A stretch of DNA of 64,000 nucleotides from Escherichia coli (GCF_041248615.1 NZ_CP158426.1); one strand, 5' to 3'; positions 42,001 to 45,000 are shown, counted from the stretch's first letter. Program-made: the numbers.

Positions 42001-45000
42001 CTCGGTTTTACGTTCCTTTACCACGGCACACCTCTTTGCATGATTATTCGAAATTAGTGTATTTTTATTCTGTTTTTTCGCAGGGTGCAAGTGTAAATTT
42101 TATGCGAGAGCGACTTTTTTATCAGTAATGCCGTGAATATAAAAAGAATGTTTACCGTTTATTAGATGACAGATTATGCGTCTTTCGCTAAAGTTTCCGG
42201 TCAAATTAGTCGTTTACTTGTTACACAGCTTAGATTTCTTTTGCTCGGGAGAGGCATGTCAGGATCCAACACTGCAATCAGCCGTCGTCGTTTACTGCAA
42301 GGCGCGGGTGCCATGTGGCTATTGAGCGTAAGTCAGGTCAGTCTGGCTGCGGTCAGCCAGGTCGTGGCGGTGCGCGTCTGGCCTGCGTCCAGCTACACCC
42401 GCGTGACGGTGGAATCAAATCGTCAGCTGAAATATAAGCAGTTCGCGTTGAGTAACCCTGAACGCGTGGTGGTGGATATCGAAGATGTAAACCTGAACTC
42501 GGTACTCAAGGGGATGGCGGCACAAATTCGTGCAGACGACCCGTTCATCAAGTCGGCGCGCGTCGGGCAATTTGACCCGCAAACCGTACGGATGGTTTTT
42601 GAATTAAAGCAAAACGTAAAACCGCAGCTGTTTGCCCTTGCGCCGGTCGCCGGGTTTAAAGAGCGTCTGGTGATGGACCTCTATCCGGCCAATGCACAGG
42701 ATATGCAGGACCCGCTGCTGGCGCTGCTGGAGGATTACAACAAAGGCGACCTCGAAAAGCAGGTGCCGCCAGCGCAAAGTGGTCCACAACCGGGTAAAGC
42801 AGGGCGCGATCGTCCGATTGTCATTATGCTTGACCCTGGCCACGGTGGCGAAGACTCCGGTGCGGTGGGGAAATACAAAACGCGCGAAAAAGATGTGGTA
42901 TTGCAAATAGCTCGCCGTTTGCGCTCTCTGATCGAGAAAGAGGGCAATATGAAGGTGTACATGACGCGCAATGAAGACATCTTCATTCCATTGCAAGTGC
43001 GCGTAGCAAAAGCCCAGAAACAGCGTGCTGACCTGTTTGTCTCTATCCATGCCGACGCCTTTACCAGTCGTCAGCCGAGCGGTTCCTCTGTGTTTGCGCT
43101 CTCAACCAAAGGTGCAACCAGTACTGCGGCAAAATATCTGGCACAAACCCAGAACGCCTCGGACTTGATTGGTGGCGTGAGCAAAAGCGGTGACCGCTAT
43201 GTCGACCACACCATGTTCGATATGGTACAGTCGCTGACCATTGCCGACAGCCTGAAGTTTGGTAAAGCGGTACTGAATAAGCTCGGTAAAATCAACAAGC
43301 TGCATAAAAATCAAGTTGAACAGGCCGGGTTTGCCGTACTAAAGGCACCAGATATTCCCTCCATTCTGGTCGAAACGGCGTTTATCAGTAACGTTGAGGA
43401 AGAGCGTAAACTGAAAACGGCGACTTTCCAGCAGGAAGTTGCGGAGTCTATTCTTGCGGGGATTAAAGCGTATTTTGCCGATGGGGCGACGCTGGCGAGA
43501 AGGGGATGATAAAAAGGCGCTGAATGGCGCTTTTTTATGGGAGGCCAGAAACAAAAAAACACCCGTTAGGGTGTTCAATAATTGGTTGCGGGGGCCGGAT
43601 TTGAACCGACGACCTTCGGGTTATGAGCCCGACGAGCTACCAGGCTGCTCCACCCCGCGTCACCGTACTGCTTTTACTTCATCAAATTTGATTGGTTGCG
43701 GGGGCCGGATTTGAACCGACGACCTTCGGGTTATGAGCCCGACGAGCTACCAGGCTGCTCCACCCCGCGTCACCGTACTGCTTTACTTCATCAAATTTTA
43801 ATTGGTTGCGGGGGCCGGATTTGAACCGACGACCTTCGGGTTATGAGCCCGACGAGCTACCAGGCTGCTCCACCCCGCGTCCGTGGATGCGCACTATACT
43901 CCGCTCGCGTTTTCATGCAACCTTTTTTTTACCCCGATCACGGATTTGGCATGATTTTGAACAAAAACAAATCACTAAAGCCTATTTTTTGTGCAAAATT
44001 TGCGTCAGGGAGAGGCTGCTCATTTCATTAAACGCGGCGGTTTGTTATCTTCGTTGCGCCTTATTTTTTAACCTGAAGAAGAGAACAATGAAAGGACGTT
44101 GGGTAAAGTACCTTCTTATGGGCACGGTTGTGGCAATGCTTGCCGCCTGCTCTTCCAAACCAACCGATCGCGGACAGCAATATAAAGACGGGAAATTTAC
44201 CCAGCCTTTCTCTCTGGTGAACCAGCCAGATGCCGTTGGCGCGCCGATTAACGCCGGTGATTTTGCCGAGCAAATTAACCATATCCGTAATTCGTCACCG
44301 CGTCTGTATGGCAACCAGAGTAATGTTTATAACGCGGTGCAAGAGTGGCTGCGCGCAGGCGGTGATACCCGCAATATGCGCCAGTTCGGCATTGATGCCT
44401 GGCAGATGGAAGGTGCCGACAACTATGGTAACGTGCAGTTTACCGGTTATTACACGCCGGTAATTCAGGCGCGCCATACCCGCCAGGGCGAGTTCCAGTA
44501 TCCTATTTACCGTATGCCGCCAAAACGTGGTCGTCTGCCGTCTCGTGCGGAGATCTACGCGGGGGCATTGAGTGATAAATATATTCTCGCTTACAGTAAC
44601 TCCCTGATGGATAACTTCATTATGGATGTGCAGGGTAGTGGGTATATCGACTTTGGTGATGGCAGTCCGCTTAACTTTTTCAGCTATGCAGGGAAAAACG
44701 GTCATGCCTATCGCAGCATTGGTAAGGTGCTGATCGACCGTGGCGAAGTGAAAAAAGAAGATATGTCGATGCAGGCGATTCGTCACTGGGGCGAAACACA
44801 CAGTGAAGCCGAGGTTCGCGAGCTGCTGGAACAGAACCCGTCTTTCGTCTTCTTTAAACCGCAATCTTTTGCTCCGGTGAAAGGGGCAAGTGCGGTGCCG
44901 CTGGTTGGTCGCGCGTCAGTTGCCTCTGATCGTTCCATTATTCCGCCAGGTACTACCTTGCTGGCAGAAGTGCCGTTGCTGGATAATAACGGCAAATTTA

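Follow-up and report, generated by a model that had tools for sequence, protein, structure and literature searches.

A tandem array of three identical tRNA-fMet1 genes between amiC and mltA in an Escherichia coli chromosome corresponds to the metZWV operon

Introduction

The metZWV locus of Escherichia coli entered the literature in the late 1980s and early 1990s, is routinely used in translation-initiation genetics and is textbook biology. The three genes of this operon are the source of most of the cellular initiator tRNA, and the level of tRNA-fMet tracks gene copy number (PMC3017606). Upon deletion of metZWV, tRNA1-fMet is lost, and the cells become cold-sensitive and initiate translation with lower fidelity and a relaxed selection of the initiator (PMC3017606); impaired growth of the deletion mutant has been reported in a systematic deletion study as well (PMC11480407). 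E. coli has a fourth gene for initiator tRNA, metY, which belongs to the same tRNA family and has the same function, but is a single, differently regulated gene located elsewhere in the chromosome, upstream of nusA-infB. The products of the two loci differ at position 46: metZ, metW and metV encode tRNA-fMet1 with G46 (m7G), whereas the metY product of strain K-12, tRNA-fMet2, carries A46 (PMC3017606). In addition, metV is a known hotspot for the integration of genomic islands (PMC7545054, PMC3032704).

Here, we analyze a stretch of 64,000 nucleotides from an E. coli genome (GCF_041248615.1, NZ_CP158426.1), hereafter the window, in which a first-pass annotation, made from the sequence alone, had noticed three identical initiator tRNA genes arranged in tandem. 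The array shares with the metZWV operon of K-12 the locus, the gene trio, the amiC and mltA flanks and the flanking promoter and terminator; it differs by about 1 base in 897, and the orientation of the window puts the operon on the minus strand, while metY lies outside the window. The array identifies the window as part of the E. coli chromosome, located in the argA-amiC-metZWV-mltA-tcdA region, and shows that the metV site for island integration is empty in this strain. What is mildly new is a census of copy-number alleles in 5,426 genomes, a small quantitative addition that bears on the work linking initiator tRNA dosage to initiation fidelity, together with rare copies that carry a C65U substitution.

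The array and its assignment to metZWV

Across the whole 64 kb, ARAGORN identifies exactly three tRNA genes, all of them tRNA-Met(CAT) on the minus strand, and covariance-model scoring, which the first-pass annotation had proposed as a check, gives 61.4 bits for each copy with the Rfam model RF00005, against a gathering score of 29. The operon is read leftward with respect to the window coordinates. The first, promoter-proximal gene is metZ (43803-43879), an interval annotated as tRNA-Met in the 100%-identical record NZ_LT599825.1; it is followed by metW (43693-43769) and by the third, terminator-proximal gene metV (43583-43659), each supported by ARAGORN, RF00005 and the sequence itself. All three are 77 nt long, identical to one another, and encode the CCA end. 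Two spacers of 33 nt, also read on the minus strand, separate the genes: S2 (43770-43802), which serves both as 3' trailer to metZ and as 5' leader to metW, is AU-rich and unstructured, with a fold energy of 0 kcal/mol that is not better than that of shuffled sequences, and S1 (43660-43692), between metW and metV, folds with -0.7 kcal/mol. Tandem Repeats Finder reports a single array at 43579-43881 with a period of 110, 2.8 copies, 97% matches, 1% indels and a score of 583.

Thus, ARAGORN, Tandem Repeats Finder and a script that compared the copies agree with the initial description of three identical 77-nt copies that recur every 110 bp and are separated by spacers of 33 bp, an arrangement that cannot have arisen by chance. 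The accompanying description of perfect tandem repeats holds for the genes but not for the spacers: S1 and S2 are set apart by a single substitution and a pair of 1-nt indels that offset each other, 3 positions in all, so that the likeness between repeat units is 97% and the exact repeat tracts extend over 81-94 nt, compared with the 110-bp unit. The 5' leader that two of the copies were said to share is the near-identical 33-nt AU-rich spacer preceding metW and metV. The different sequence upstream of the remaining copy, which had been presumed to be the operon promoter with no strand given, can be so read only in the minus-strand sense, in which the copy at 43803-43879 is metZ.

The placement of the array between amiC and mltA is borne out both by the flanking reading frames and by an annotated, identical record. 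The amiC reading frame lies on the plus strand and ends at 43509, and mltA, also on the plus strand, starts with the ATG at 44088. Together with its flanks, the array (897 bp) is 100% identical to the sequence of E. coli NRZ14408, where amiC and mltA are likewise annotated around it, and 99.9% identical to the sequences of K-12 and BL21, where three tRNA-Met genes are annotated. Furthermore, the homology arms used for the published deletion of metZWV, tgaaaacgcgagcggagtatagtgcgcatccacgga and cagaaacaaaaaaacacccgttagggtgttcaataat, match the window exactly on both flanks of the array, and so does the published northern probe for tRNA-fMet (PMC3017606). Because these published reagents match exactly, the array is metZWV itself, beyond mere likeness. 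The layout, as far as it can be read from the sequence, is also that of the operon, comprising three identical genes arranged in tandem and flanked by amiC and mltA, one upstream region with a putative promoter and one predicted terminator. Nothing that contradicts this explanation was found, and we put the probability that the array is the metZWV operon of E. coli, consisting of three identical, co-oriented minus-strand tRNA-fMet1 genes, at about 98%.

Copy number among E. coli genomes

Copies were counted in 5,426 complete E. coli genomes, using array-only queries that consisted of 2, 3 or 4 copies and E-value cut-offs reachable only by an HSP spanning the respective number of copies. Counting by a BLAST query coverage of at least 80% was rejected because shifted pieces from genomes with fewer copies were joined to 100% coverage. 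At least two copies were found in 5,194 of the 5,426 genomes, at least three in 4,999 and at least four in 67; 26 genomes, recognized by two shifted 4-copy matches, have five. Accordingly, three copies are present in about 4,932 genomes (90.9%), two in 195 (3.6%), one or none in 232 (4.3%), four in 41 (0.8%) and five in 26 (0.5%). The comparison between strains, suggested by the first-pass annotation, therefore reveals a range of 1 to 5 copies among complete genomes.

The inspected cases include YZ22PE106 with a single copy, three strains with two copies, in which the sampled arrays have the order T-S1-T, FDAARGOS_946 and E. coli HS with four copies each, the former in the order T-S1-T-S1-T-S2-T, and 675SK2 with five copies and a duplicated two-unit block within the array. 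The order of the spacers in these variant arrays fits unequal crossing-over between the repeats, in line with the original suggestion that such repeats are prone to changes in copy number. Exact repeats of 81-94 nt would allow both unequal homologous recombination and gene conversion, processes that would keep the copies identical and occasionally shift their number.

Some of the low-copy assemblies may represent collapsed repeats and no real alleles, the array being a possible site of repeat collapse by assemblers. E. coli ST648 (CP008697), which appeared to have no copies, was discarded as a proven case of such an assembly artefact, given that a single 'n' replaces the whole array; this 'n' in CP008697.1 (locus L003, 5990-6005) lies at the array site and results in an annotation that lacks the metZWV genes in a genome designated 'complete'. 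The K-12-derived strain XL10-Gold (match H225) has four copies compared with three in K-12, and three of the four E. coli HS assemblies among the matches have four copies, CP092639.1 (H233) apparently having one fewer; both discrepancies could reflect either a change in copy number during laboratory propagation or differences between assemblies. A few tRNA-fMet matches (4-6 places) are located on records classed as plasmids, one of these matches being a full three-copy array; the records may be F-prime-type plasmids or misassigned replicons.

A rare variant of the initiator tRNA, C65U, which converts the T-stem pair G49:C65 into a G:U wobble, occurs in 7 of the 5,426 genomes. In E. coli HS, both inner copies of the 4-copy array carry it (locus L007, 511-587 and 621-697), which implies that the variant copy itself was duplicated, and in 675SK2 it occupies the terminator-proximal copy of the 5-copy array (locus L005, 490-566).

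About 9% of the genomes do not have three copies, and some of the alleles are common to clonal groups. That this polymorphism is partly adaptive strikes us as unlikely; were it so, the supply of initiator tRNA and, through it, growth rate, cold tolerance and start-codon fidelity would be tuned in particular lineages. Otherwise, the variation would represent neutral recombinational noise or errors of assembly. The amplification of C65U copies in the HS array could be a related curiosity.

Conservation beyond E. coli and the metV island site

To delineate the distribution of such arrays, one genome per species was scanned for two exact copies of the tRNA located 15-45 nt apart. The scan returned 59 loci from Enterobacterales and Ferrimonas, with 2-6 tandem identical copies, among them loci from Escherichia, Citrobacter, Enterobacter, Klebsiella, Kluyvera, Yersinia, Dickeya, Edwardsiella, Tatumella, Xenorhabdus, Brenneria and other genera, as well as Salmonella arizonae. 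According to ARAGORN, 39 of the 59 loci have three copies of tRNA-fMet and 17 have two, with one locus each for four, five and six copies. Within the fetched loci, mltA is present in 50 of the 59 cases and amiC in 33, that is, mltA is usually nearby in the other Enterobacterales and amiC is in many. The mature tRNA encoded in these arrays is identical to that of E. coli and the copies are co-oriented, whereas copy number and spacers differ, with about 22-50 nt between most neighbouring copies and occasional gaps of 76-171 nt. The Ferrimonas arrays, with 5-6 copies, adjoin neither amiC nor mltA. The tandem arrangement is thus old and conserved, and three copies are the usual state.

In 1,964 of 5,425 complete E. 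coli genomes (about 36%), homology to the window is lost at 43574-43582, just past the 3' end of metV. These genomes carry an island between amiC and metV, and the window represents the empty site. The island of NU14 encodes type VI secretion, and that of ST648 and 675SK2 is related to PTS/sugar metabolism; in ST648, the sequences diverge directly from the stop codon of amiC onwards, and no duplication of an attachment site is obvious.

Given that metV is an integration hotspot (PMC7545054), that an island adjoins it in about 36% of the genomes, and that repeat arrays can be mis-assembled, as in CP008697, one might suppose that only one of the genes is real and that the extra copies are non-functional duplications of an island attachment site or an artefact of assembly. 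We consider this highly improbable. All three copies are identical and full-length (77 nt), three copies are found in about 91% of the 5,426 genomes, including those that are free of the island, and are the commonest state in other genera too, and deletion of metZWV takes away the majority of the cellular tRNA-fMet (PMC3017606), all of which argues for an array of three genuine genes.

Identity of the encoded tRNA

The generic tools do not by themselves settle the class of these tRNAs: both ARAGORN and the general Rfam model for tRNAs give no more than tRNA-Met/CAT and cannot tell apart the three classes that have a CAU anticodon, which leaves room for an elongator tRNA-Met or for tRNA-Ile2, in which CAU is read as AUA after lysidine modification. 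The identity determinants were read in standard tRNA numbering with one extra base in the D-loop (17a). All three genes have the anticodon C34-A35-U36 (CAU), a C1xA72 mismatch followed by the pairs G2:C71 and C3:G70, the pair A11:U24 in the D stem, and an anticodon stem with three consecutive G:C pairs, G29:C41, G30:C40 and G31:C39. The combination of a purine at position 11 with a pyrimidine at position 24 is the reverse of that in elongator tRNAs. In the minimum-free-energy structure, the tRNA forms a cloverleaf that leaves position 1 unpaired; the energy of this fold is not better than that of shuffled sequences (z-score -0.9), which is usual for tRNAs and uninformative.

The features that would mark an elongator tRNA-Met or tRNA-Ile2 are a Watson-Crick pair 1:72 and the absence of a run of three G:C pairs; the mismatch and the run were found instead. 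The unpaired C1xA72, A11:U24 and G29-31:C39-41 are hallmarks of bacterial initiator tRNAs, among which the 1x72 mismatch is prominent (PMC5389676), and the three G:C pairs of the anticodon stem are the determinant of P-site selection (PMC5389676, PMC3017606). Moreover, the published tRNA-fMet probe is directed at this very sequence, and the published metZWV deletion at this locus (PMC3017606), so that we regard the elongator and tRNA-Ile2 assignments as very improbable. The initiator identity that had been proposed for the array, with CAU, C1xA72, the three G:C pairs and A11:U24 all in place, thus stands. Since position 46 is G in the window genes, the isoacceptor is tRNA-fMet1. Judged by every defining feature that can be read from a sequence, the genes are those of initiator tRNA-fMet1; formylation of the Met-tRNA and its direct binding to the P-site with IF2 have been demonstrated experimentally for the identical sequence (PMC3017606, PMC5389676).

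Promoter, terminator and transcript model

Upstream of metZ, a putative metZWV promoter of the sigma-70, stable-RNA type can be read on the minus strand at 43893-43930. It would comprise an UP-element-like A8 tract (43930-43923), a -35 hexamer TTGCAT (43920-43915), a 16-nt spacer and a -10 hexamer TATAGT (43898-43893), followed by a GC-rich discriminator GCGC (43892-43889) and a short leader that reaches 43880. A consensus promoter scan flagged no metZWV promoter; the candidate was missed because its -35 hexamer matches the consensus at only 3 of 6 positions. The region is the one in which promoter-down mutations of metZWV have been described, namely, a G-to-A change immediately before the -10 hexamer and a T-to-C change within it, and the window sequence fits both (PMC3017606). 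The knock-out primer tgaaaacgcgagcggagtatagtgcgcatccacgga corresponds to 43914-43880 on the minus strand (PMC3017606), and the sequence of the putative promoter also fits the reported down-regulation of metZWV by ppGpp (PMC3017606).

On the other side of the array, a terminator scan predicted that metZWV ends in an intrinsic terminator on the minus strand (43547-43576), with an 8-bp stem formed by GAACACCC and GGGUGUUU, a UAAC loop and a U-rich tail. Its hairpin (43576-43557) has a predicted energy of -11.1 kcal/mol (z-score -3.97), a value that was not reached by any of 200 shuffled sequences. Right after the amiC stop codon, another hairpin with a T-run is present on the plus strand (43510-43537; -13.7 kcal/mol, z-score -2.97), which is likely to be the amiC terminator, convergent with that of metZWV.

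In the model suggested by this layout, one sigma-70 promoter, situated rightward of 43880, would give rise to a single precursor transcript ending at the hairpin at 43576-43557, from which the 33-nt AU-rich spacers would be removed by the nucleases that commonly process tRNAs, namely RNase P, RNase E and 3' exonucleases. These processing steps follow from general knowledge of tRNA maturation in E. coli. The mature tRNA would then be charged with methionine and formylated, formylation depending on the C1xA72 mismatch along with the 2:71 and 3:70 pairs, and the three G:C pairs of the anticodon stem would direct it straight to the ribosomal P-site. The supply of initiator tRNA would come mostly from the three metZWV copies and for the remainder from metY, with gene dosage setting the level.

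Antisense reading frames over the array

Mechanical translation of the plus strand yields reading frames that cross the array at 43439-43714, 43696-43824 and 43806-45185, the last of which has a TTG start and is an N-terminal extension of mltA. The four array-crossing reading frames have no exact match in a collection of 15 billion proteins. A homology search with the 42-aa reading frame retrieved 317 short proteins at E <= 0.001, in which the only common part is the peptide LRGPDLNRRPSGYEPDELPGCSTPR, the antisense translation of the tRNA; related spurious reading frames found in this search use other start codons, and one of the 317, a 59-aa E. coli 'hypothetical protein', is the plain translation over two copies and a spacer. 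The RefSeq annotation of eleven inspected E. coli records has no CDS across the array. Hence, the warning that spurious protein genes are called across these repeats is apt for public protein sets but does not extend to the RefSeq annotations inspected.

That a plus-strand protein-coding gene covers the array, be it the 91-aa or the 42-aa reading frame or an extension of mltA from 43806, is the least credible of the alternatives: the reading frames exist and similar peptides have been deposited as hypothetical proteins (the 317 matches at E <= 0.001), but these are singletons of 29-74 aa without a Pfam domain, from unrelated taxa (Vibrio, Pseudomonas, an alga), that share only the tRNA-derived stretch, 0 of the 11 inspected E. 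coli records have a CDS there, and the MltA start at 44088 provides a lipoprotein-type N-terminus, MKGRWVKYLL...LAAC. The metZWV array is, accordingly, to be viewed as a site of spurious antisense gene calls. Several metagenome gene calls of 30-54 aa (P0039, P0047, P0055 and P0060) are antisense translations of tRNA-fMet as well, and they bear the JGI label 'membrane-bound lytic murein transglycosylase A', apparently transferred from the neighbouring mltA, an annotation error that has spread.

Other elements in the window

Between mltA and tcdA, two inverted REP-type palindromes, gccggatgcggcgtgaacgccttatccggcctac and gtaggcctgataagcgtagcgcatcaggc, are located at 45270-45380. A match to the Rfam sRNA family ES036/CssrF (45307-45349, 46.5 bits) lies between and within the REP elements and, because of this location, may reflect REP sequence instead of an sRNA gene. 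NU14 lacks about 160 bp of the mltA-tcdA interval. Elsewhere in the window, there are genes for known small RNAs: two adjacent ones of the OmrA/OmrB family on the plus strand (14881-14962 and 15077-15164; 86 and 97 bits) and GcvB on the minus strand (48365-48570; 199 bits). They agree with a position in the part of the E. coli chromosome around gcvA and aas-galR.
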